Shown here: in pieces, positions 2,938 to 40,769 of the stretch | Layout of the letters: each line of letters opens with the position of its first letter | Numbering within the stretch: position 1 is the first letter of the stretch | DNA from: an uncultured Clostridium sp. | GTDB taxonomy: Bacteria > Bacillota > Clostridia > TANB77 > CAG-508 | Length of the DNA: 40,885 bases | Assembly: GCA_947571515.1 (NCBI GenBank) | Contig: CANOYI010000002.1 | Coordinates: 1 to 40,885, forward strand | Reading direction: 5' to 3' | Made by a program: the position numbers and the translations under genes | The notes under the pieces: model-generated | Told to the model about the DNA's origin: nothing | What the model saw: only the letters and a program-made list of their open reading frames with translations | Databases searched by the model: none

Positions 2938-3086
2938 TATTTTTTCCTCCTTCTGCGCATTGTGTTATGATGGGTAACTTTTGTTGTCTACTTTAATAGA
3001 CTTCAAACAAATATATTACATATTAACATATTAACATAGATTTTCTAGTATTTCAATAGAATAAATTTTCAAGTTTCGACTTTTTT

Positions 3087-3151
3087 GTTACTGGCCAGCC
3101 TACTTTTGTATTTTTTTAGTGAGAAAACAAATAATAAGGCTGATTAGTAAC
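3087..3151. repeat. 65-bp inverted-repeat mini-element flanked by an 8-bp direct repeat
   Basis: gttactggccagcc (3087-3100) pairs with ggctgattagtaac (3138-3151) at 11 of 14 positions. ACTTTTTT occurs directly on both sides, at 3079-3086 and 3152-3159. Confidence 0.4.
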
Positions 3152-3271
3152 ACTTTTTTCCAAGCATTTTAATAAATTTATAAATTTCACTAGACAATTT
3201 TCAACCTTTTGTGTTATCATATTAAAGAACAAAAGAAATCAACCGAATAGGTTTTAATGGAGGGAAAATAA

Positions 3272-4488: not shown

Positions 4489-4962
4489 ATGAATACAAAA
4501 TTAATTGCTAAAAATCCAACTGCTCATCATAATTATCAAATAGAAGATAAAATGGAGGCTGGTATTGTTTTAACAGGAACGGAAATCAAATCGATTCGTG
4601 CTGGAAAAGTCAATTTAAAAGATAGCTATGCTTATATCAAAAATAGTGAAGTTTTTATTTCAGGTATGCATATTAGTCCTTATGAACATGGTAATATTTT
4701 TAATAAAGATCCTTTACGCAATCGAAAATTACTATTACATAAAAAAGAAATTAATAAACTAATTGGCTTAACCAAACAAAAGGGGTTTAGCCTTGTTCCT
4801 ATTAGTATCTATTTTTCAGGAAGCTTGGTTAAAGTAGACTTAGGCATAGGTAAAGGAAAAAAGCTTTATGATAAACGTCAAGATTTAGCTAAAAAAGATG
4901 CACAAAAACAAATTGCTATTAATATTAAAATGTGCAATAGGGACGTTTCTTTTCGCACATGA
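4489..4962 (+). CDS. smpB: SsrA-binding protein SmpB; last ~10 codons and stop supplied by repeat elements
   Basis: [27 protein letters not shown] and [17 protein letters not shown] are typical SmpB motifs. The tail [10 protein letters not shown] plus TGA falls inside hairpin 4931-4959 and repeat 4958-4989. Confidence 0.9.
4931..4959. repeat. GGGAC-loop hairpin (singlet REP-like unit)
   Basis: tgtgcaatagggacgtttcttttcgcaca is near-identical to 9890-9916 (gtgcagtggggacgtttctttttgcac). Confidence 0.6.
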
Positions 4963-5109: not shown

Positions 5110-6039
5110 TTATATTTTATTGCTGGAACCAAAAACATCCATCATTTTATGTTTTACGGTTTCTGTGATTAATTCTCTTGCAGGTTTTAAATATTTTCTA
5201 GGGTCAAATGCATTTGGTTCTTCTGCAAATACTTTTCTAATTCCTGCTGTCATAGCTAATCGTAAGTCTGTGTCAACATTTATTTTTGATACGCCAGAGA
5301 TACTTGCTTCATGTAATATTTCATCTGGTACACCTTTTGCTCCTGGTATATCTCCCCCATATTGATTACACATCTCTACTAATTTTGGAATAACAGTAGA
5401 AGCACCATGTAATACAATTGGTGTATTTGGTATTCTTTCTTTGATTTCTTTTAAAATATCAAATCTTAGTTTTGCTTCTCCTTTGAATTTATAAGCTCCA
5501 TGGCTGGTTCCTATGGCGATTGCTAAAGAGTCACATCCTGTTCTTTCTACAAATTCTTGGGCTTGTGCTGGGTCTGTGTACATCGCATCAGAAGAATCTA
5601 CATTGACTTCATCTTCTATTCCTGCTAATTTTCCAAGTTCAGCTTCTACTACTACCCCTTTGCTGTGAGCATAGTCAACTACTTTTTTTGTTAATGCTAC
5701 ATTTTCTTCAAAATCATATTTTGAACCATCTATCATAACAGACGTAAATCCATTATCGATACACATTTTAGCTGTATCAAAATCTGGTCCATGATCTAAA
5801 TGAATAGCAATTGGAACTTCTGGATGCTCCTCTACTGCTGCTTCTACCATTTTCATTAAATAATTGATTCTTGCATATTTAATGGCACTAGATGAAGCTT
5901 GCAAAATGACTGGTGATTTGCTCTGAGCAGCTGCATCTACAATGGCTTGTATAATTTCCATATTATTGACATTGAATGCACCTATGGCAAATCCTTCTTT
6001 CATTGATTTTTCAAACATTTCCTTTGTTGTTACTAACAT
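5110..6039 (-). CDS. fba: class II fructose-1,6-bisphosphate aldolase
   Basis: 309 aa. IAIHLDHGPDF and AIGTSHGAYKF are zinc-site and active-site motifs of class II FBA. Confidence 0.92.
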   Translation of the reverse strand: MLVTTKEMFEKSMKEGFAIGAFNVNNMEIIQAIVDAAAQSKSPVILQASSSAIKYARINYLMKMVEAAVEEHPEVPIAIHLDHGPDFDTAKMCIDNGFTSVMIDGSKYDFEENVALTKKVVDYAHSKGVVVEAELGKLAGIEDEVNVDSSDAMYTDPAQAQEFVERTGCDSLAIAIGTSHGAYKFKGEAKLRFDILKEIKERIPNTPIVLHGASTVIPKLVEMCNQYGGDIPGAKGVPDEILHEASISGVSKINVDTDLRLAMTAGIRKVFAEEPNAFDPRKYLKPARELITETVKHKMMDVFGSSNKI

Positions 6040-6134
6040 ATTTATCTCCTCCTTTTTTGTTATTGTATTTCTATTTTTTCAATCTGTCAAGGTAAATTTA
6101 ATTTTAAGTTTCAATTTTAAATTTTCAATAGGTC

Positions 6135-7205: not shown

Positions 7206-7323
7206 ATCATGATTTTGGGGACGGAGGAAAAAATCATGATATGAATCAAATAAAATAATATAGATTAACATAGAAAAATATATGAAATAAATCATGATTT
7301 TTTCCTCCGTCCCCAAAATCATG
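7206..7323. repeat. REPIN-like inverted doublet (copy 2)
   Basis: atcatgattttggggacggaggaaaaaatcatgat (7206-7240) and atcatgattttttcctccgtccccaaaatcatg (7291-7323). The 50-bp interior is unrelated to that of copy 1. Confidence 0.75.
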
Positions 7324-12694: not shown

Positions 12695-12914
12695 TATCTT
12701 ACTGTTACAATTCACAGCTATTTTATTTTATATACTTCTGCAATAGGAATCATATTTATTTTTTCGAAGTTCTGCGTAGGGATGCTACCCTAATAGAAGT
12801 GACCTTAAGCGAATGGAGCAATCTTTGATTGCGACAACAAAGAACAAGAAAAAATAAATATAATTTCCTATTGCAATAACTTTAAATTGTTTTAGCTGTG
12901 AATTGTAACATCTT
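12695..12914. repeat. ~65-bp imperfect inverted repeat enclosing an 80-nt GC-richer core
   Basis: Arms share tgttacaattcacagcta, tgcaataggaa and atatttattttttc with their complements. The core is 12768-12847. The right arm overlaps the stop of the SdpI-like gene. Confidence 0.7.
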
Positions 12915-13536
12915 ACTTTTTTATCAAACAATAAAACCCTTCTATCAAGATAGCGACCACTAGAACAATAATTACAGTAATAGTAGATATTGGTGGAAAC
13001 AAAATACTAACCAATAAAGCAATACCACTAATGACAAAAGTATATCCTAACATTCTAATCATTTTTCGATATGTTTTTTCATCTTTTGGCATAGGATGAA
13101 ATTTTCCCTTTGCTATTTCATAACTCATTTTAGGAAGGTAATTTCCTGTTAAAATCCATAAAATACCAAGCACAAGACATATACTTTTTCTGACATCTAC
13201 TGTACTTCCTAATGGTATTTCAATTAATATCGTTGATACTACAACACTTAATATTGGTATAAACCATTTTACAATCGTAATAAATCTTGGTCTTTTTGCT
13301 TCCTTTTCTTCTTTTCTATCTGTAATGATACAACAAAAAATTTGCAATGTCGTTAAAATAATTGGTATGCCAAATAAAGCGAAATTCTTGGAAGCATAAT
13401 TGTCTACTTCATTATTGATATTAAAGTGTATTGGCATTTGTTCTGGTAGTTGTTGATAAAATATAATTCCTAATAAAATAGGTAATAAGCATACGATACT
13501 TGTTATGATTAAAATTTTCCAATTTATATTTTTCAT
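12913..13536 (-). CDS. SdpI/YhfL-family membrane protein
   Basis: 207-aa polytopic membrane protein, overlapping by 4 nt the upstream ArsR/SdpR-type repressor gene. Confidence 0.7.
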   Translation of the reverse strand: MKNINWKILIITSIVCLLPILLGIIFYQQLPEQMPIHFNINNEVDNYASKNFALFGIPIILTTLQIFCCIITDRKEEKEAKRPRFITIVKWFIPILSVVVSTILIEIPLGSTVDVRKSICLVLGILWILTGNYLPKMSYEIAKGKFHPMPKDEKTYRKMIRMLGYTFVISGIALLVSILFPPISTITVIIVLVVAILIEGFYCLIKK

Positions 13537-18696: not shown

Positions 18697-18745
18697 TTGC
18701 TTTTTCCCCTTTCGTTCTACTACTCCTTATCAACTTTATCAATTA

Positions 18746-18947
18746 TTTTCCAAATGTTCATGATAATATTTTGCAACACCGCGTAAGCGACTAGCTACTG
18801 CATACTGCCACTGTAACAAGCCAAGCTTTAACAGTGGACAGCAAAACGAGCGAAAGCAAGTGCGATTTAGAGCAACCAACGTTTCTTTAATTTAGGAAGG
18901 TTGCGACACACAAGGTGTAAAAAATATTATCATCAACATTTGGAAAA
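18746..18947 (+). repeat. apex-core element, copy 1 (27-bp locus-specific arms plus ~148-nt conserved core)
   Basis: Arms are ttttccaaatgttcatgataatatttt and aaaatattatcatcaacatttggaaaa. The core at 18771-18918 is near-identical to 28105-28253 and to the reverse complement of about 36933-37078. Confidence 0.8.
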
Positions 18948-18980
18948 CCAATTTGTAAATTTGATAAAAAAATTATATCA

Positions 18981-19016
18981 TAAAAAATAAAAGATTTTGT
19001 TGCAATTGCAACAAAA
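18981..19016 (-). terminator. terminator of the MATE-fusion gene
   Basis: Perfect palindrome ttttgttgcaattgcaacaaaa followed by a T-rich tract on the minus strand. Confidence 0.55.
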
Positions 19017-28023: not shown

Positions 28024-28081
28024 TTACCGTTTCCTTCCTTTCCATCTTTTGTTTTTAGCGGATTTACGTTTAATCTATTCT

Positions 28082-28280
28082 ACTTAATTTATCTAATATT
28101 ATTTTTGCAACACCGCGTAAGCGACCAGCTGACGCATACTGCCACTGTAACAAGCAAAGCTTTAACAGTGGACAGCAAAACGAGCATTTGGCAAGTAGCG
28201 ATTTAGAGCAACCGTCCATCTTTAATTTATGAAGGTTGCGACACACAAGGTGTAAAAAAATAATATAAGATAAATTAAGT
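28082..28280 (+). repeat. apex-core element, copy 2
   Basis: Arms are acttaatttatctaatattattttt and aaaaaaataatataagataaattaagt (25 bp, 1 mismatch). The conserved core spans about 28105-28253. The right arm contains the DUF2207 stop codon. Confidence 0.8.
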
Positions 28281-30194
28281 TAATAAGGTTGGGTCTATCT
28301 TCCGCCACCGCCTCCGCCGTCCACCGTCCGGCCTCCGGCCACCGCCAGAAAATCCTCCTCCGCCTCCTGAGGCAGAAGAATAGGCACTTGACATAGAGCT
28401 ACTAATAGCATTTGAAAAGCTATTGGAAAAATCAGTATTCATCATCAAGTACATATATCCATAAGTATTTACGTCGAATTGTTCTGTCATATTTGGATAA
28501 ACAATTTTCAATTGTTTTAATACTTTATCAGCAATTCCAAATACAGTTGCATAAACTAAGAACTTTTCCCATATGACAAGTTCTGGAACTTCTCTTTTAT
28601 CTAGCATAGAAAAATCTTCCATGTATCTTTTTAGTCCTTTCCATTCTGCATTTTCATCGATCCCTTTTTGGGTTAATACATTCATTTTACCTGATAACAC
28701 ACAAAAAACAATTAGTTGTACTAATGTGGCTAAAATAAATGGTATCATACCGATTGGATTGATATTTGGTATGGATATTAATATCCCAAAAAGAATGGTT
28801 GAAAAAACAAGGAGTATAAATAATAATACTGCATAGGCTGTTATATCTGTCTTTTCTTGTTTTCCTTTTTGATCAGCTAATTCTTTTTCATATAAAGCCT
28901 GTTCTGTACTTTTATCGATTTTCTCTTTTAGCTTCATTACTTTACTTTGTGATTTTTTAATATATTTTTCTAATTCTTTAATCGTTATTTCACCATGATT
29001 TTGTTCACATGCCTTTTTCAAAAATTCAAAAATTGCCTTTTCATCTTTAAAAGCTTCTAATTTTTCTGAATTTTCCTCTAACATCTTTATTGTTATGATT
29101 TTGTCATTTACTTGAAAGTCTATCATTTTCTTTAAGTTCAAATCTAACAAAGTAGCAGAAAATACCCTTCCAATATGAGTACTACTATAAAAGCTTCCTA
29201 CTTGTTTCTCCAAAAGTGCTAACGCCTCCGCTGGTGTAGCATTTTCTCTTGGCATTTCTCTATAATATTTTATTTCTTGACTTGGCACCAATTTTTTACT
29301 TGTTTTAATTTTTTTGACATTTTTAATAATGGATTTAATTGAGAAAATGGTTAAGATAATAGCAACTAAATTAACTATTATGGTAGCTATTATTTTCATA
29401 TCTTCTTTCCTTTTTCTTCTTTCATTGGCTTGATTGGCCCATTTGGTTTCTTCCTGAAGTACTTGCTCTAATCTTTCTGTATTTTCTCCTCTACCTGCAT
29501 GCGTTATCATTTCTGTTGGAAATAAAGTTCTTACTTCTACATATCTTCCAGAACGAAATCTATGAATTGTAAATTCAATTTTATTGGTATCAGTGGCATA
29601 GATTTCTCCATTTAAGTCTTCCGTATGCCCCCAAACTTTGATATTTTCTTTACTATCAGCATTATAAGGCAACAAAATCGTTCCTGTTATTTTCTTAGCA
29701 TCTATTTCAAATTCCTGCCCTACAAACTGCCAATATAGTTCTGCATAATCTTGGTATTTGGCTATAGCATCTTCTACTTGATAGGAAATCTCATAGGTTC
29801 TTGTTGCTGAGCTATCTTCTAGTCCTACTCCCCAAGCAATCTCAAATTCTTTGTCATCATTTAATCCTCCAAAATATTTTCCTTTTGGCAAATGATAACT
29901 CCATTGATTTTGCTTGCTAAATGGCTGTTTCTTTGCATTGGTTACCTCTGTTACTTGTACATTGGTTATGTTAGAATATTTTGTTTTATCTGTCTTGAAT
30001 GTTTTATACAAAGTATTGGTATCCTCTATTTCGATATTCCATTTTTCGGTAACATTCATACTTCCATCTTGGTTGATTTGTGCTTGAAAGTCTAGTTGAT
30101 TTAGGAATAAGTCACTCGATGAAGCTTGTACTGGGTTAGTCATAAATAAGATACTGGCTATTCCTATTATCAAATAGGTTACAATTTTTTTCAC
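28275..30194 (-). CDS. DUF2207 domain membrane protein with a Gly-rich C-terminal tail
   Basis: 639 aa. Signal peptide, large external domain, TM cluster, and a SASGGGGGFSGGG tail encoded by a locally very GC-rich stretch. Confidence 0.8.
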   Translation of the reverse strand: MKKIVTYLIIGIASILFMTNPVQASSSDLFLNQLDFQAQINQDGSMNVTEKWNIEIEDTNTLYKTFKTDKTKYSNITNVQVTEVTNAKKQPFSKQNQWSYHLPKGKYFGGLNDDKEFEIAWGVGLEDSSATRTYEISYQVEDAIAKYQDYAELYWQFVGQEFEIDAKKITGTILLPYNADSKENIKVWGHTEDLNGEIYATDTNKIEFTIHRFRSGRYVEVRTLFPTEMITHAGRGENTERLEQVLQEETKWANQANERRKRKEDMKIIATIIVNLVAIILTIFSIKSIIKNVKKIKTSKKLVPSQEIKYYREMPRENATPAEALALLEKQVGSFYSSTHIGRVFSATLLDLNLKKMIDFQVNDKIITIKMLEENSEKLEAFKDEKAIFEFLKKACEQNHGEITIKELEKYIKKSQSKVMKLKEKIDKSTEQALYEKELADQKGKQEKTDITAYAVLLFILLVFSTILFGILISIPNINPIGMIPFILATLVQLIVFCVLSGKMNVLTQKGIDENAEWKGLKRYMEDFSMLDKREVPELVIWEKFLVYATVFGIADKVLKQLKIVYPNMTEQFDVNTYGYMYLMMNTDFSNSFSNAISSSMSSAYSSASGGGGGFSGGGRRPDGGRRRRWRKIDPTLLT

Positions 30195-30238
30195 TTTCTT
30201 CTCCCCTTTTTTGTCGTTCTTCCTAATTTTTTAATCGT

Positions 30239-30320
30239 GTTGATATATTAATATTTTGCAGTTCAAGACCAGTAGATAGACCCCAGCTATGTTTTGAACA
30301 AAAAATATTAATATATCAAC
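30239..30320. repeat. 19-bp perfect AT arms enclosing a 44-nt GC-richer core
   Basis: gttgatatattaatatttt/aaaatattaatatatcaac. The core gcagttcaagaccagtagatagaccccagctatgttttgaacaa has an inner gttcaa/ttgaac helix. Confidence 0.65.
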
Positions 30321-30339
30321 ATATTTATAACTTTTCTAT

Positions 30340-31912: not shown

Positions 31913-33622
31913 ATGGCATTTGATGGAATTGTGACCAAAGCAATTGCTTCGGAATTGCAACAACTAGCAGGAGCAAGAATTGACAAAATTTTTCAACCTA
32001 ATAAAAACACCATTTTATTAGGTTTTTATTTAGATGGTTCTAATTATTTATTAAACCTATGTACTGACGCACAAAACTATCGTATTCATCTAACAACCCA
32101 TGCAAAACCCAATCCTAAAATAGCTCCTAACTTTTGTATGGTACTTCGCAAACACCTACTAGGATTGCATATCAAAAGCATTACAACTAACAACTTAGAA
32201 AGATTAGTTGTAATTGATTTCGAAGGATTTGACGATGTTGATGATATTATTTCTAAAAGGCTAATTGTAGAATTGATGGGAAAACACTGCAATATCATTT
32301 TATTAGATGAACAAAATAGAATCATTGATAGTTTAAGACATATTCATAAGGAAGATAGTTCTAGGGATATTGTCCCTCATGTTAAATACACCTATCCTAC
32401 TACTACAAAATATAACTTTTTAGATTGTTTTCGTTTTGAAGATTTTTATGAAAAAGTTTCATCTTCATCGAAGGATGCTATTTATAATGTTTTTAATGGA
32501 ATTAGCAAATCTTTTATAGAAGCTTCTTTAAAACATCTTGGTATTGATGTGTTAAATGAAGATACTTTGAAAAAGCTTTACGAGCATATGAAGGAAATGA
32601 TCAATCGAACAGATAGTGATTTATTAGACTTTGCATTAATAGAGACTAAAAAACGAGATTATTTTCTAATAGAAGCGGAAAACTCTTCCTCTCCTTTTCA
32701 TTTAAACTTTTTTATCGATGACTTTTATCATGAAAAGGAAACTTCTGAGGAATTTAAAATCTATCGTGATAGTATTTTAAAAATGATTTTAGACCTTTTA
32801 AAAAAATATAAAAAGCGACTTTTCAATATTAATGAGAAACTAAATGCTTGTGAAGATATGGAAAAATACCAAATATATGGCGAACTTATAACAGCAAATT
32901 TATATCAAATTCCAAATAAAAACGTAAAAGAAATCACACTTGACAATTATTATGACAATCAAAAAATTACAATTCCTTTAGATGATAGATATTCTCCTTC
33001 TGTTAATGCCAAGCATTTCTTTAAAAAATATCATAAATTAAAAAATGCTTTAGAAATTGTAACTTTGCAAAAAGAAGAAACTAGGAAGGAACTAACTTAT
33101 ATTGAAAGTATTGTATACGAATTAGAAAATTGTTCTACCATAGAAGAAGTATCCGAAATCTTTGAAGAAATTTCTGAAAATATAATTTTTAAGGAAAAAA
33201 CCGAACATCTTAAAAACAAGAAAAAAGCAAAAGTGAAAAAATCTTCTCTCACCAAAAATAAAAATGTTTCTTTTAATCCTTTAAAATATACCATTGATAA
33301 CTATACTCTATTAGTTGGAAGAAACAACAAAGAAAATGACTACTTAACCTTAAAATATGCTAAAAAAACAGACTTATGGTTTCACACCAAAGACATTCAT
33401 GGTAGCCATGCTATCTTGCAAATAAATTCAGGTCAGTTGCCAACTGATACAATTTTAACCCAATGTGCCAAAATCGTTGCCTATCATAGCAAAGCCAAAA
33501 ATTCTTCTAATGTACCAGTGGACATCTGCGAAGTGAAATATGTAAAAAAACCAAATGGTGCCAAACCTGGTATGGTAATTTATAGCAATAATAAGACTTT
33601 CTATGTGAATCCCAAAAAATGA
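31913..33622 (+). CDS. rqcH: ribosome quality control factor RqcH (NFACT / FbpA family)
   Basis: 569 aa. NFACT-N start MAFDGIVTKAIASEL, coiled-coil middle, and NFACT-R LWFHTKDIHGSHAIL. Confidence 0.85.
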   Translation: MAFDGIVTKAIASELQQLAGARIDKIFQPNKNTILLGFYLDGSNYLLNLCTDAQNYRIHLTTHAKPNPKIAPNFCMVLRKHLLGLHIKSITTNNLERLVVIDFEGFDDVDDIISKRLIVELMGKHCNIILLDEQNRIIDSLRHIHKEDSSRDIVPHVKYTYPTTTKYNFLDCFRFEDFYEKVSSSSKDAIYNVFNGISKSFIEASLKHLGIDVLNEDTLKKLYEHMKEMINRTDSDLLDFALIETKKRDYFLIEAENSSSPFHLNFFIDDFYHEKETSEEFKIYRDSILKMILDLLKKYKKRLFNINEKLNACEDMEKYQIYGELITANLYQIPNKNVKEITLDNYYDNQKITIPLDDRYSPSVNAKHFFKKYHKLKNALEIVTLQKEETRKELTYIESIVYELENCSTIEEVSEIFEEISENIIFKEKTEHLKNKKKAKVKKSSLTKNKNVSFNPLKYTIDNYTLLVGRNNKENDYLTLKYAKKTDLWFHTKDIHGSHAILQINSGQLPTDTILTQCAKIVAYHSKAKNSSNVPVDICEVKYVKKPNGAKPGMVIYSNNKTFYVNPKK

Positions 33623-33738
33623 GACAAGGGGGACAGGTTTCTTTTGTCTCATAAATCAAGTCGAAAAATGTCAAAAAATAAATGAACTAAAAAACGACAA
33701 AAAATATGAGACAGTTTAAACCTGTCCCCCTTGTCTCA
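33620..33738. repeat. REPIN-like inverted doublet, second family (gagacaaggggg type)
   Basis: tgagacaagggggacaggttt (33620-33640) pairs perfectly with aaacctgtcccccttgtctca (33718-33738). The first TGA is the rqcH stop codon. Confidence 0.75.
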
Positions 33739-34377: not shown

Positions 34378-34449
34378 TTCGAATGTAAAAAAATCAACTA
34401 AAAAACGACAAAAAATATGAGACAGTTTAAACCTGTCCCCCTTGTCTCA
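34378..34449. repeat. partial second copy of the gagaca-type element (interior plus right end)
   Basis: aactaaaaaacgacaaaaaatatgagacagtttaaacctgtcccccttgtctca is identical to 33686-33738. It encodes the last 7 codons and the stop of the MFS-like gene. Confidence 0.7.
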
Positions 34450-36884: not shown

Positions 36885-37125
36885 TTCAAGTTTCGACTTT
36901 TTGCAATTGAGGGGTTGTAATATATCATTTTTTTACACTTTGTGTGTCGCAACCTTCCTTTATTAAGAAAGGTTGGTTGCTCCAATGCTACTTGCTTTGC
37001 TCGTTTTGCTGTCCACTGTTAAAGCTTTGCTTGTTACAGTGGCAGTATGCAGTAGCTGGTCGCTTACGCAGTGTTGCAAAAATGATATATTACAACCCCT
37101 CAATTGCAAAAAGTCGAAACTTAAA
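36885..37125 (-). mobile_element. apex-core element, copy 3 (inverted orientation), 241 bp with ~48-bp terminal inverted repeats and a 9-bp flanking direct repeat
   Basis: A 45-bp perfect IR runs 36888-36932 and 37078-37122. TTCCTTTTA occurs at 36876-36884 and again at 37126-37134. The core is the reverse complement of copies 1 and 2. Confidence 0.75.
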
Positions 37126-37158
37126 TTCCTTTTAAGTTCATTTTTCAGAAACCAATAC

Positions 37159-40100
37159 TTACACTTCTATCTCTTTTCCCAAAAAAGTCGAATAAATAAA
37201 CACATGATTCACTTTTTTATGCAAAGCATTTTCTAAAGCCCTTTGGTACAATTCCAATTGTTTTTTATACTTATCTACTAACTCTTGTTCTGTTTGAACA
37301 AAATCTGTCTTGTAATCCACCAAAATCAGTTCATCTTGTCCATTGATATAATACAAATCAATCATTCCCTGTACCAATATGTTTTCTGGCACATCCTCTT
37401 GATAAACCTCTTTGGCTGGTATCGTAATATAAAACGGTTTTTCTTTCTGAATTTCTTTAGCTTGTTTTATATCTTGCCAGATTTTTGACTGTGTAAATTT
37501 TAGAACAGCAGTTGGATTAATATGATCTGCCTCTTTTGAAGTAATCATTTCTTTGTCCACCATATCATGAATTAATTCTTTTACCTTCTCTAAGGTATAT
37601 TCAATTTTTTCGTCTAATTTTTGCATACATAAATGTAATAGTGTTCCTTTCTGTGCTCCTGTAAGTTTAATTTCCTTCTCTTGCTTTGTAAATTTAGGAG
37701 CTGGAAAACTAACTTCAATTTGTTCTTCTTCTCTTTGTTTTATCTTCGTAACAGAAGATTTTGTAGGGATTTTAGTGGATAACTCATAAGCATAGGTATC
37801 CTTTAAGGTACTTGCTATTTTAGCTATTTCTTCCTCATCTATTTTATGTTCTTCCATCATCTCTAATAAATTGATATTTTCTTCTTCTCTTTTTTCGCAA
37901 AAATCTAGTACGTCCTTTTTCGTATAGGTCTTTAAGTCTACTATTGTCTCAACTTGTGACGGTTCATAAAAATACACTAACAAAATCCAATCGATATATT
38001 TGATATACTTTTTCACTAAAATGGGATTGATTTTTTGATTTTGTTTTTGATATCTCTCAATTTGCTGCAACAGCTTTTCTTTCTGTTTTTCAAAATCTTT
38101 TTTGATTCCTGTTATAATAAGTTTTTCTTTGGCTCTTGTCAAAGCAACATACAAGATTCTCATTTCTTCTGATAAGGTTTCTATAAAAGTTTGATTGCGA
38201 ATCGCTCTTTTGCTCAATGTATCATATTGTACTTGTTTTTCATAATCAATATATTTCACACCGAATGCCTAATTCTTGATGTAACAATATATTTTGATTT
38301 AAATCCATTAGATTAAATTGTTTTCCTGTGCTTGCTAAAAACACAACTGGAAATTCTAGCCCTTTACTTTTATGAATACTCATAATTCTAACAACATTAT
38401 CATTTTCTCCTATGATTTTAGCAGCTCCCATATCTCCACTGCTTAATCTTAGTTTTTCGATAAAATGAATAAAATTGTATAATCCTTTAAAACTTGCTGT
38501 TTCATACTGTTTGGCTCTTTCAAACAACATTCTTAAATTTGCTTGTCGCAATTGTCCATTTGGCATTAAACCTGCATAATGATAATATCCTGTATCAGAA
38601 TAAATTTTCCAAATCAACTCATCTAATGCTAAATATTCTTGTTCTTTTCGCCATTGTGCTAAACTTTTTAAAAAGTTTTCTATTTTATTTTTTAAATCCT
38701 TCTCTACAGAAAGCTTGGCTTTTTGTAAGCAAGCATAAAAGTTATCTTGTTTGTCTGCTAGACGAATTTGAATTAGTTCGTCATCAGTAAATTTGCCAAT
38801 ACTAGACCTCATAACCGTTACTAATGGAATGTCTTGGATTGGATTATCAATAATTTTTAGTAAACTGATTACAGTCTGAATTTCAATGGAATCCAAATAT
38901 TCTTGTGAACTGTCGGAAAATACAGGCATTTGCAAATTCAATATTTCTTGTTCATAGAGCGGTGCTACATTGCTAGTACTTCTTAATAAAATTACAATGT
39001 CTTTATATTGAAGAGCTCGATATTTCTCTTGTTTTTTGTCCCACACTTGAAATTTATTTTCTATTAATTTCTGTATTTTATTGGCTACAAATTTAGCTTC
39101 TAACTCTACATCTGCTATATTTTCTTCTTGCTGTTCTTTCCTTTCTTCTGTTGTTTCTGTTGGTTCTTCTGCTTCCACTACTGTTTCTATTGCTTCTTCG
39201 GTTTCCTCCTCAGCCACAGAATCGATGACATGAATTTCGATTTTTTCATCTTGATTAATTTTGGGGTAATTTGCTCCCAAATTCAAAAATTCCTCTTCGT
39301 TGTAATGAATGTCTCCCAATGTTTTGCTCATAATATCTGCAAAAATTAAATTAGTAAATTGTAAAATGTTTTGCTTACTTCTAAAGTTTTTGAATAACTG
39401 AATTTTCAAGTCTTGTTCTGGTTCTTTTGTTTCCTTTTTTTGATAGGTTTCGTATTTATGTAAAAACAGTTCTGGCATAGCTTGTCTAAATTTATAAATA
39501 CTTTGCTTGACATCTCCTACCATAAAAATATTGTTATTTCTAGATATAGCAGTTAATATATATTCTTGTACCAGATTACTATCTTGGTACTCATCAATAG
39601 CGATTTCTTCAAATTTGTTTTGATATTTTTTTGCTACTTCACTCGCATTTAATAGGATGTCTAAGGCAAAATGCTCGATATCACTAAAATCTACGATATT
39701 TTTTTCTCTCTTTCGTTTCGTAAATTCTTTTTCAAATGCTAAAATTAGATTTTGTAATTTTACCAAAATCGGATACATATCATAAATATCTTGATTGGCT
39801 TCTTGTGAATTACAAATTAGTATCTTGTCCAATACTTTGGCTAATTTCTTTTTTACTTCATCTCTGATTTCTTTTGCCTTATCTTTGCTTTCTGATTCCA
39901 CCTTTTGTCTTGGCCAAGTTACAAATTTTAGGTTTCCGAGCTATTTCATAAGCTTTGTCCCAATGATTTAAGCTGTTTTTTAATTCTTCTAGTTGCTGGA
40001 TGTCACTTCTAATGGTTTGATAAAATTTTTCTAGTTCTGGTTCCTTAGACAAATCTTGTTTTACTTTTTCTAACATAGTAATATCATCGATTAATTCTTC

Positions 40101-40769
40101 TTTGACTTCTTGCAATAAAATATTCCCCCAAGATGTTTGACTAAAATCTTCTTCTAGTTTCCCATCTAAATTAAACATTTCTATTTTTTCTGATAACCAT
40201 TTTTGCGGAAATGGATTGCTTTGTATGTAAGAATGTATTTTTAAAACTAAATCTTTTAGTGGTGTGTCATCTCTGTAACTGGTGTATACATTGATTAATT
40301 TCGTAAAATCGCTATCCTCTGTTTCATATTTTTCTTCAAAAATGTCTTCGATTACTTCTTGTTTTAATAATTCCATTTCTGTTGTGTCTGCAATCCTAAA
40401 ATTAGGTGATATACTTTCTAATTCGTAAAAATTGTTTCGTACTACTTCTAAACAGAAAGAGTCAATGGTACAAATGTTAGCTTTGTTTAATAAGGTTACT
40501 TGCCTTTGTAAGTTTTCGTCTTCTGGGGTTTCTTCTAGTTTTTGATAAATGGCATTTAAGACTCTTTCTCTCATTTCGGATGCTGCACTGTTGGTAAAGG
40601 TTACGACTAATAGTTTGTCAATGTCTACTTTGTCTTGTATGATTTTGTTGATAATTCTTTCTACTAATACGGCTGTTTTTCCGCTTCCAGCAGCTGCTGC
40701 TACTAATATGTTGCTTCCTTTTTCGTAGATGGCGTCTTGCTGTTCTGGTGTCCAGTTTACTTGGCTCAT
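37159..40769 (-). pseudogene. addA: ATP-dependent helicase/nuclease subunit A (AddA), interrupted by two frameshifts
   Basis: Three consecutive overlapping ORFs of 296, 551 and 366 aa. Together they contain AAAGSGKT, DEYQD, UvrD-type helicase motifs and the RecB nuclease motif LVDYKTD. Confidence 0.85.

Follow-up and report, generated by a model that had tools for sequence, protein, structure and literature searches.

Bacterial miniature inverted-repeat transposable elements (MITEs) include the Correia elements of Neisseria, the pneumococcal RUP and BOX elements, enterobacterial ERIC and bcr1 of Bacillus cereus, some of which are transcribed and processed. They are small, non-coding, multi-copy and intergenic, carry terminal inverted repeats (TIRs) and target duplications, are polymorphic for presence and absence, and fold into long hairpins. 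Here we describe a family of repeats with all of these properties, four copies of which lie in a 40,885-nt contig of an uncultured Clostridium sp. (GenBank assembly GCA_947571515.1, contig CANOYI010000002.1, positions 1–40,885 of the forward strand; hereafter the window). Copies 1–4 are probably non-autonomous, TIR-bounded, MITE-like transposable elements of 200–330 bp that reside in the chromosomes of uncultured low-GC gut Clostridia. Unlike in Correia, RUP, ERIC and bcr1, the centre is the most conserved part of these units; it is a covarying multi-helix junction with invariant joining strands, which we call the core, and units whose termini are unrelated have it in common. The family also has no known parent insertion sequence, and its duplications are 8–10 bp long, where Correia and RUP duplicate TA.

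Several other systems resemble the elements in single features. REP sequences and REPINs, which RAYT proteins mobilize, are likewise palindromic, multi-copy, intergenic and hairpin-forming, but a REPIN has conserved ends, a variable middle, no target duplication and a RAYT gene, whereas the present units have a conserved centre, target duplications and no associated gene. The conserved centre, class-specific ends and duplications rule out a REPIN. Elements of the IS200/IS605 type lack TIRs and target duplications, carry subterminal hairpins and insert 3′ of a fixed tetra- or pentanucleotide; the long inverted repeats and 8–10-bp duplications of varied sequence seen here exclude derivation from them. 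Integron attC sites were rejected because the ends depart from the RYYYAAC/GTTRRRY consensus (left end GTTACTG..), the copies lie ~9 kb apart among housekeeping genes, and the window holds no integrase; single-strand origins and oriT-like nick sites were rejected on anatomy. The omega RNAs of IscB/TnpB, the IS110 bridge RNA, HEARO and the IS605-orfB motifs also place a conserved non-coding fold on a transposable element. Those RNAs, however, adjoin the nuclease or recombinase gene they serve at the element end, without long inverted repeats, while here there is neither a protein gene nor an Rfam match. Searches of the literature by topic and by exact sequence string found no description of the element family.

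The original prediction for this DNA, made from its letters alone, had pointed to a near-identical core of ~150 nt at three places, each bracketed by long inverted repeats. Both points hold. The cores lie at 18771–18918 (plus strand), 28105–28253 (plus strand) and 36933–37078 (minus strand), are ~90% identical in a nearly gap-free alignment, and differ mostly in two hairpin loops, as had been stated. A 17-mer from the core, with up to three mismatches allowed, has three matches in the window, where chance would give 0.02. Each core is the apex of a near-perfect palindrome with arms of 27, 25 and 49 nt, respectively. The count of three was incomplete. R1, a covariance model of the core made in this analysis, recovers 105 copies and adds a diverged fourth copy in the window (25.3 bits, E = 3e-5 over the whole window). 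Read as RNA, copy 3 is predicted to form a 47-bp stem capped by the core (−118 kcal/mol, z = −16.6). The four copies are laid out as follows, with arm classes and core helices (P1 to P5) as described further below and bit scores from R1.

12696–12703 and 12910–12917, 8-bp duplication ATCTTACT flanking copy 4
12704–12909, plus strand, copy 4, whole class-C element with termini GTTACAATTCACAGC..GCTGTGAATTGTAAC
12767–12847, plus strand, copy 4 core, diverged short form, P1 GUUCU/AGAAC and a short P5 (GCAAUC..GAUUGC)
18727–18967, plus strand, copy 1, whole D-like element with mismatches allowed (arms 18727–18772 and 18921–18967)
18746–18772 and 18921–18947, near-perfect part of the copy 1 arms, 27 nt, 96% complementary; the outer ~20 nt are ~80% complementary
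18774–18920, plus strand, copy 1 core, long form, 62 bits
18776–18780 and 18914–18918, P1 of copy 1, which also has P3 (CCACTGT..ACAGTGG), P4 and P5 (GCAACC..GGTTGC)
28070–28293, plus strand, copy 2, whole class-D-like element
28082–28106 and 28256–28280, near-perfect arms of copy 2, 25 nt, 96% complementary
28108–28255, plus strand, copy 2 core, long form, 57.8 bits
36876–36884 (distal) and 37126–37134 (proximal), minus strand, target-site duplication TAAAAGGAA of copy 3
36885–37125, minus strand, copy 3, whole class-B element with termini TTTAAGTTTCGAC..GTCGAAACTTGAA
36884–36932 and 37078–37126, arms of copy 3, 49 nt, 98% complementary
36933–37076, minus strand, copy 3 core, long form, P1 ACACU/AGUGU, 58.9 bits

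The window itself is chromosomal, has 26–31% GC and contains only housekeeping genes, among them nrdD, a MatE–cytidylate kinase fusion, addAB-like helicases, smpB and fructose-bisphosphate aldolase; the GC content of the core is higher than that of this genome. An exact search with a 22-mer of the core yielded 46 copies in ~9 metagenome-assembled genomes (MAGs) of ‘uncultured Clostridium/Clostridia’, with ~20 in a single MAG, and a gapped pattern from the 3′ half of the core added 63 loci from human, shrew, marmot and other gut metagenomes. Loci from related genomes and gut metagenomes are given L numbers below. The units, of 200–330 bp, are non-coding and occupy intergenic sites, 5′ untranslated regions (5′UTRs) or gene ends. 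Neither the core nor whole elements showed similarity to phages or plasmids apart from chance Borreliella matches, and a scan of viral contigs gave 0 matches.

The core exists in two forms, a short form of ~95 nt in most metagenome copies and a long form of ~148 nt in the lineage of the window. In order, the short form comprises P1, the joining strand GCGUAAGCGA, P2′ (CCAA/UUGG) enclosing P4, GUGCGA, P5 (GCAAC..GUUGC, with a variable extension), GACACACAA, and the 3′ strand of P1. In the long form, the 5′ strand of P2′ is interrupted by an additional 55-nt hairpin, P3 (CCACUGU..ACAGUGG). P3 and P5 correspond to the two internal hairpins originally noted (CCACTGT/ACAGTGG and GCAACC/GGTTGC), and both are present. 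The joining strands GCGUAAGCGA, GUGCGA and GACACACAA are invariant.

Covariation was measured on 37 distinct short-form copies. In these, 92.9% of the cells are paired, compared with ~30% when partners are slid by 1–3 columns, and changes on both sides occur at 12/21 pairs. The covariation score is 0.331 against 0.146 for shuffles, a value that none of 500 shuffles reaches. In the closing helix, the exchange of ACACC/GGTGT in copies 1 and 2 for ACACT/AGTGT in copy 3, first reported as a compensatory change, extends in the 37 relatives to double changes at all five P1 pairs, and at least 11 compensatory versions of P1 exist across copies (ACACC/GGUGU, AUACC/GGUAU, AUGCC/GGCAU, CACCC/GGGUG, AAUAC/GUAUU, AAUGC/GCAUU, GCUCU/AGAGC, AAUCU/AGAUU, ACCAC/GUGGU, AAUGU/ACAUU and GUUCU/AGAAC). 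In P4, GC..GC alternates with AC..GU and tandem G-A with Watson–Crick pairs; the sixth pair of P5 alternates between C-G and U-A, and P3 has three compensatory changes in L104 and L094. A protein-coding core was rejected, as many copies have 1-nt indels that break the open frame in its 5′ 80 nt, and codon periodicity is absent. In Rfam 15, the window gives 0 matches at the gathering threshold, and copy 3 and six short-form loci searched to E = 10 give only generic long-hairpin microRNA-precursor matches, none of them relevant. That no known RNA family fits, as the prediction had said, is borne out, and both the copies and the covariation go well beyond those seen in the window.

The arms measure 25–80 bp and are 85–100% complementary in almost all copies. 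The claim that their sequences are completely different at each locus did not survive comparison. An inner stretch of ~12 nt (..ATATTATTTTT / AAAAAAATAATAT..) is common to all copies in the window, which share further inner-arm homology, and the inner ~12–30 nt are homologous across all classes. When the ~105 copies are aligned with their flanks, the arms fall into classes that recur at many unrelated loci, both within one genome and across hosts, and the same core recurs inside classes that are otherwise unrelated. Perfect direct duplications of 8–10 bp lie immediately outside the arms in more than 20 copies, which belong to classes B, C and D.

Class B, ends TTYAAGTTTCGAC.. / TTYAAGTTTCGACTTTTTGC.., window copy 3; duplications at window copy 3 (TAAAAGGAA), L006, L011, L017, L025, L048 and L095
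Class C, ends GTTACWGTTCAG.., window copy 4; duplications at L015, L032, L033, L039, L042, L060, L075 and window copy 4
Class D, ends YAATRCTGTCAACTTAAGG.. (YAATRCTGTCAAC), window copies 1 and 2 being D-like; duplications at L028, L002 and L020
Classes G and A, ends ..GGGGACG..; class G, TGATTTTGGGGACGG

Mismatches within the arms comprise 44 G:T, 36 A:C and 92 others; with no G-U excess among them, a strand-specific RNA stem is ruled out for the arms. The first of the two readings originally offered, a structured RNA with a freely variable outer stem, fares well for the core, with its covariation, optional hairpin and conserved joining strands, and fails for the arms, which are class-specific TIRs flanked by duplications. 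Conservation of class C across hosts is 0.77 for the terminal 12 nt, 0.73 for the inner 12 nt and 0.56 for the mid-arm, the pattern expected if the ends are recognized by their sequence and a further constraint acts close to the core. Cores and arms are combined in mosaic fashion: class-B arms enclose three P5 variants, with or without P3 (L095 versus L052), which indicates recombination or gene conversion among copies.

These ends bear directly on a mechanism in which the core acts in cis as a single-stranded DNA structure and a structure-specific enzyme cuts out or copies the entire hairpin at the foot of the stem, so that any termini would work. Such a mechanism would explain why duplications abut the end of complementarity despite unrelated terminal bases (TT..AA, GT..AC, CA..TG and AG..CT), why the core is conserved at the level of the family and not of the locus, and why whole arms remain complementary. 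We nevertheless regard it as highly improbable. In classes B and C, different hosts share the terminal ~12–14 nt but not the mid-arms, which is the mark of ends recognized by their sequence; orientation in the wider set is unbiased with respect to replication; no candidate enzyme turned up; and no such hairpin-excision mechanism is known in bacteria.

Orthologous sites show how the units come and go. The whole unit, arms included, is present in L026 and absent from the orthologous site in L036. The site of copy 1, compared through orthologs of the neighboring MatE gene, is empty in L112/L113, from a lineage 85% identical, where the intergenic region is 114 nt long and reads ..TATCAAA|AGATGAAAAAACG... 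In L110/L111 (91% lineage), the copy 1 element lacks 110 nt of its interior and is mutated in the GCGTAAGCGA strand, which is invariant otherwise, and L118 (86% lineage) retains only remnants. Copy 1 is thus an old insertion that is intact in the window and decaying in its closest relatives. The copy 2 ortholog in L044 is also filled and differs by one compensated double substitution in the arms. At the level of sequence comparison, these loci and the duplications show that the whole unit moves, arms included, inserting with an 8–10-bp target duplication, that relatives carry or lack it as a block, and that internal deletions erode it.

The decay of copy 1 also weighs on the possibility that the copies are independent chromosomal genes for a small structured RNA, spread by ordinary duplication, with a long closing stem that drifts by compensation. 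Strong covariation and conserved joining strands in the core, its higher GC content than that of the 26–31% GC genome and the compensated double substitution in the copy 2/L044 arms would all fit such genes. Target duplications, block presence and absence, ~20 copies per genome and shared arm classes, however, indicate transposition; the arm mismatches have no G-U preference; close relatives carry decaying orthologs of copy 1, so that the locus is not under host selection; and the units have no preferred orientation to neighboring genes (18 against 17 in the metagenome set). We give this possibility hardly any weight. Since single copies erode in close relatives and the fold is nonetheless kept in different hosts and arm classes, selection appears to act on the family and not on each locus.

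The window also holds palindromes with the same outer arms and no core.

3066–3086, left end of a truncated class-B element (TTTCAAGTTTCGACTTTTTT), in which the next element is inserted
3079–3086 and 3152–3159, 8-bp duplication ACTTTTTT flanking the next element
3087–3151, core-less class-C mini element of 64 bp, GTTACTGGCCAGCC..GGCTGATTAGTAAC, retaining one inner-arm copy AGTGAGAAA
4960–5065, core-less class-G palindrome, TGATTTTGGGGACGGAGG..CCTCCGTCCCCCAAATCA, keeping the left arm
7208–7323, second core-less class-G palindrome, keeping the right arm AAAATAATATAGATTAA..

At 3066–3159, repeats stack up in one intergenic spot, and a separate hairpin, TGTGCAATAGGGACGTTTCTTTTCGCACA, lies at 4932–4960 beside the first class-G palindrome. 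GGGGACG occurs six times in the window against 0.29 expected, and the GGGGACG palindrome family recurs in many loci.

Such palindromes are what one would look for if only the core, at most with the ~12-nt inner repeat, were mobile and inserted into the tips of existing palindromes such as terminators, the arms belonging to the host or target. This was the second reading of the original prediction. Beyond the three listed above and another at L042 2894–2946, it could appeal to the same core in arm classes with unrelated termini, to a class-D repeat recognizable within class-A arms, and to the outermost 7 nt of copy 1, which pair the element end with host sequence that is also in the empty site. 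Against it, the duplications flank the outer ends of the arms and not the core, no duplication or junction signature marks the boundary between core and arm, and the complete unit including its arms is missing from the empty sites in L036 and L112. In the core-less palindromes of classes C and G, one copy of the arm sequence next to the core persists (AGTGAGAAA, TAATCTAATA and AAAATAATATAGATTAA), the class-C minis have short microhomologies at their junctions, and L004 holds a deletion remnant joined at a TTGCAA repeat. One retained core-proximal arm, left or right in class G, together with the class-C junction microhomology, makes the core-less palindromes look like deletion products and not virgin targets; the site orthologous to 4960–5065 in L013 holds a complete element with core. 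One class-A palindrome, at L042 2894–2946, is apparently virgin. Movement of the core alone is, on balance, quite unlikely. Core and arms are largely gained and lost together, as expected of a conventional MITE, an outcome that the prediction had named as counting against it. What survives of tip targeting is a weaker form, in which a basic class-D element is recognizable nested in classes A and G and partly in B and C; such nesting is a plausible origin of the composite classes.

The inconsistent orientation of the cores, already noted from the window, is real. L070 (7395–7650) and L073 (6197–6452) have identical flanks around a 136-nt interior that is 99% identical only in reverse complement, and at this locus L055, L067, L097 and L099 likewise contrast with L070 and L092. 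Similarly, L026 (5909, plus; 5860–6110) and L036 (2744, minus; 2690–2960) have collinear flanks and opposite cores. Comparison of these alleles shows inversion of the core by recombination between its two arms, which accounts for the inconsistent orientation. In the metagenome set, the core is antisense to neighboring genes in 18 cases and sense in 17; an antisense bias of 27:9 in the first data set is gone. Random orientation and inversion argue against a cis-regulatory leader, as the prediction had also held, and against a role as terminator. The latter was rejected in addition because no U-tract follows the arms and only 5/86 sites lie between convergent genes.

Inverted repeats that flank a segment found in both orientations at the same locus in different samples are also the hallmark of gut invertons, and invertible elements are common in gut bacteria. 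The arms might on that model be inversion sites, with flipping of the core turning a promoter, or a sense RNA within a read-through transcript, on and off, and mobility being secondary. Two clean inversion polymorphisms at fixed loci (the L070/L073 locus and L026/L036) are in its favor, as are inward-pointing, promoter-like TTGCAA-16-TATCAT sites in both arms of copy 3. These sites are class-specific and not universal, though, no recombinase gene lies near any copy, the arms are too diverse for one site-specific invertase, and homologous recombination between inverted repeats of 25–80 bp predicts inversion anyway. The family departs from invertons in its lack of a nearby invertase, its diverse and very long repeats, its mobile multi-copy units and the absence of a conserved promoter in the invertible part. 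A switch is very unlikely to be what the elements are for, and a classical site-specific inverton was rejected, since inversion occurs but there is no recurrent neighbor gene and the repeats are unrelated between classes. We also rejected a conserved outward promoter composed of TTGCGA in the core and TAATAT in the arm, as it occurs with its 18-nt spacer in copy 1 only and is not conserved in GC-richer relatives.

Clustering of open reading frames within 3 kb of ~120 copies returned only orthologous neighbors and no recurrent linked gene. Elsewhere, MIC231 illustrates that IS231-type ends can carry cargo other than a transposase. Compared with such IS4-family cassettes (IS231 and MIC231), the present ends are partly alike, but the cargo is a non-coding structured module and not genes. 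Class-G ends start with TG and end with CA, as in the IS3 family, and the ends of the two core-less class-G palindromes (TGATTTTGGGGACGGAGG..CA) resemble those of IS3-family elements. The IS4 subgroup has the end consensus -AATR--------WTW---- with repeats of 10–13 bp, IS231 CAT-------AA--TAA--- and ISPepr1 YT-AA-YTT (PMC2266710, Table 1). Class-D ends (YAATRCTGTCAACTTAAGG, duplication of 9–10 bp) fit the IS4-subgroup string and partly that of IS231, and class-B ends fit the ISPepr1 string (PMC2266710), consensus strings that are short and degenerate; the duplication lengths are compatible with the IS4 family (~9–12 bp).

By membership, the family is a MITE family: its members are small (<~600 bp), non-coding and dispersed, bear TIRs and target duplications and show insertion polymorphism, so that every defining feature is present save a known parent insertion sequence. 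It is a MITE family built around an uncatalogued structured module. We envisage that the arms serve as transposase recognition ends, with class-specific transposases, a different one per class, recognizing them. Classes A and G, and probably B and C, would have arisen when a basic class-D element became nested in other palindromic repeats, and gene conversion between copies would then have kept the cores alike. The core would function in folded, single-stranded form, most probably as an RNA with the polarity GCGUAAGCGA...GACACACAA. Such an RNA could be transcribed from the inner arm, where a -10-like box ends ~7 nt before P1 in most classes, or it could be released from read-through transcripts by cleavage of the 25–80-bp duplex arms. 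The element family, and not any single host locus, would depend on it in order to spread or to be retained, as suggested by the decay of single copies in a family that keeps the fold.

All 21 of 21 one-sided changes in P2′ are C-to-U or A-to-G, hence G-U compatible on the GCGUAAGCGA...GACACACAA strand, and the core as a whole has 31 G-U against 10 A-C cells in the 37 short forms. This is a hint, though a weak one, that folding takes place on the GCGUAAGCGA...GACACACAA strand: the asymmetry comes mostly from P2′, a helix with no double compensations, and the same bases may pair differently, with UG/CA and a tandem G-A modeled as an extension of P5. A C-to-T mutation bias at unpaired positions could mimic the asymmetry as well.

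These reservations are among several that count against a transposing MITE with a functional RNA core. The units would be mobilized by transposases acting on the repeats, yet no autonomous element or transposase with matching ends was found in the window or at ~120 loci, in MAG assemblies that usually lose insertion sequences. Window copies 1 and 2 have no recognizable target-site duplication. Classes B, C and D have no terminal bases in common, so that the same core sits in units presumably needing different transposases and repeated nesting or exchange is required; internal duplications of the class-D unit sought inside A-, G- and C-type arms were none of them convincing. Finally, compensated substitutions occur along whole arms, between classes and in the copy 2/L044 ortholog pair, and pure transposase binding does not demand them.

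A further possibility is that the core itself determines mobility, as the central part of a bacterial mobile element of a new kind. A folded module of RNA or single-stranded DNA, perhaps a new RNA that cleaves itself or recruits proteins, would then be required for the hairpin-shaped unit to propagate and would hitch-hike in several unrelated palindromic repeat families, mobility being set by structure, a long stem capped by the core, and not by end sequence. We consider this unlikely. On the preferred reading, a MITE-like family, one conserved centre inside arm classes that presumably need different transposases remains a puzzle. If the core is a functional RNA, it would represent an uncatalogued, widespread structured RNA class of mammalian-gut Clostridia dispersed by transposition, and a natural case of a mobile element spreading a folded RNA module. 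Hairpins that can flip in 5′UTRs and at gene ends probably affect expression, assembly and annotation of these genomes, and the repeats should be masked or modeled in RNA motif searches.

Two copies in the window touch host genes. Copy 1 lies in the 5′UTR of nrdD, antisense to this gene for the essential anaerobic ribonucleotide reductase, next to the region 18967–19016. A few bases upstream of it is a promoter-like TTGCAA-17-TATGAT(ATAAT) on the minus strand (19005–18972), which overlaps the terminator hairpin of the MatE gene (19016–18995). With copy 1 downstream of this site, the nrdD mRNA would carry a ~240-nt perfect hairpin. The DUF2207 membrane-protein gene (28275–30194, minus strand) has its last codons and stop codon (28275–28277) inside the right arm of copy 2, and the insertion appears to have supplied the present C-terminus of the protein.

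An AddA/UvrD-type helicase-nuclease is split over three successive, overlapping open reading frames at 39879–40769, 38246–39901 and 37159–38259 through frameshifts (a pseudogene) or assembly errors. In the wider set, Nextera adapter sequence (CTGTCTCTTATACACATCT / AGATGTGTATAAGAGACAG) abuts elements at L078 ~2450–2508 and L086 1–40, pointing to assembly or trimming artefacts at hairpins.

Other palindromes in the window and its relatives have a similar build. At 30229–30330, arms GTTGATATATTAATATTTT / AAAATATTAATATATCAAC enclose a different GC-richer centre of 42 nt (GCAGTTCAAGACCAGTAGATAGACCCCAGCTATGTTTTGAAC); this palindrome is conserved at the orthologous site in L044 (89% identity) and was not found elsewhere. 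A palindromic repeat, TGAGACAAGGGGGACAGGTTTCTTTTGTCTCA .. TGAGACAG..CCTGTCCCCCTTGTCTCA, occupies 33620–33738, with a second, partial copy 0.7 kb away at 34387–34449 and relatives in L038 and L005. At L009 4600–4950, orthologous to the site of a copy in L010, a different palindrome-flanked element has arms TTTTGGGCATGGCTGGGTGCTACACATGTATTTTTATA and an unrelated centre of ~130 nt, so that other centres, too, can be framed by a long palindrome.

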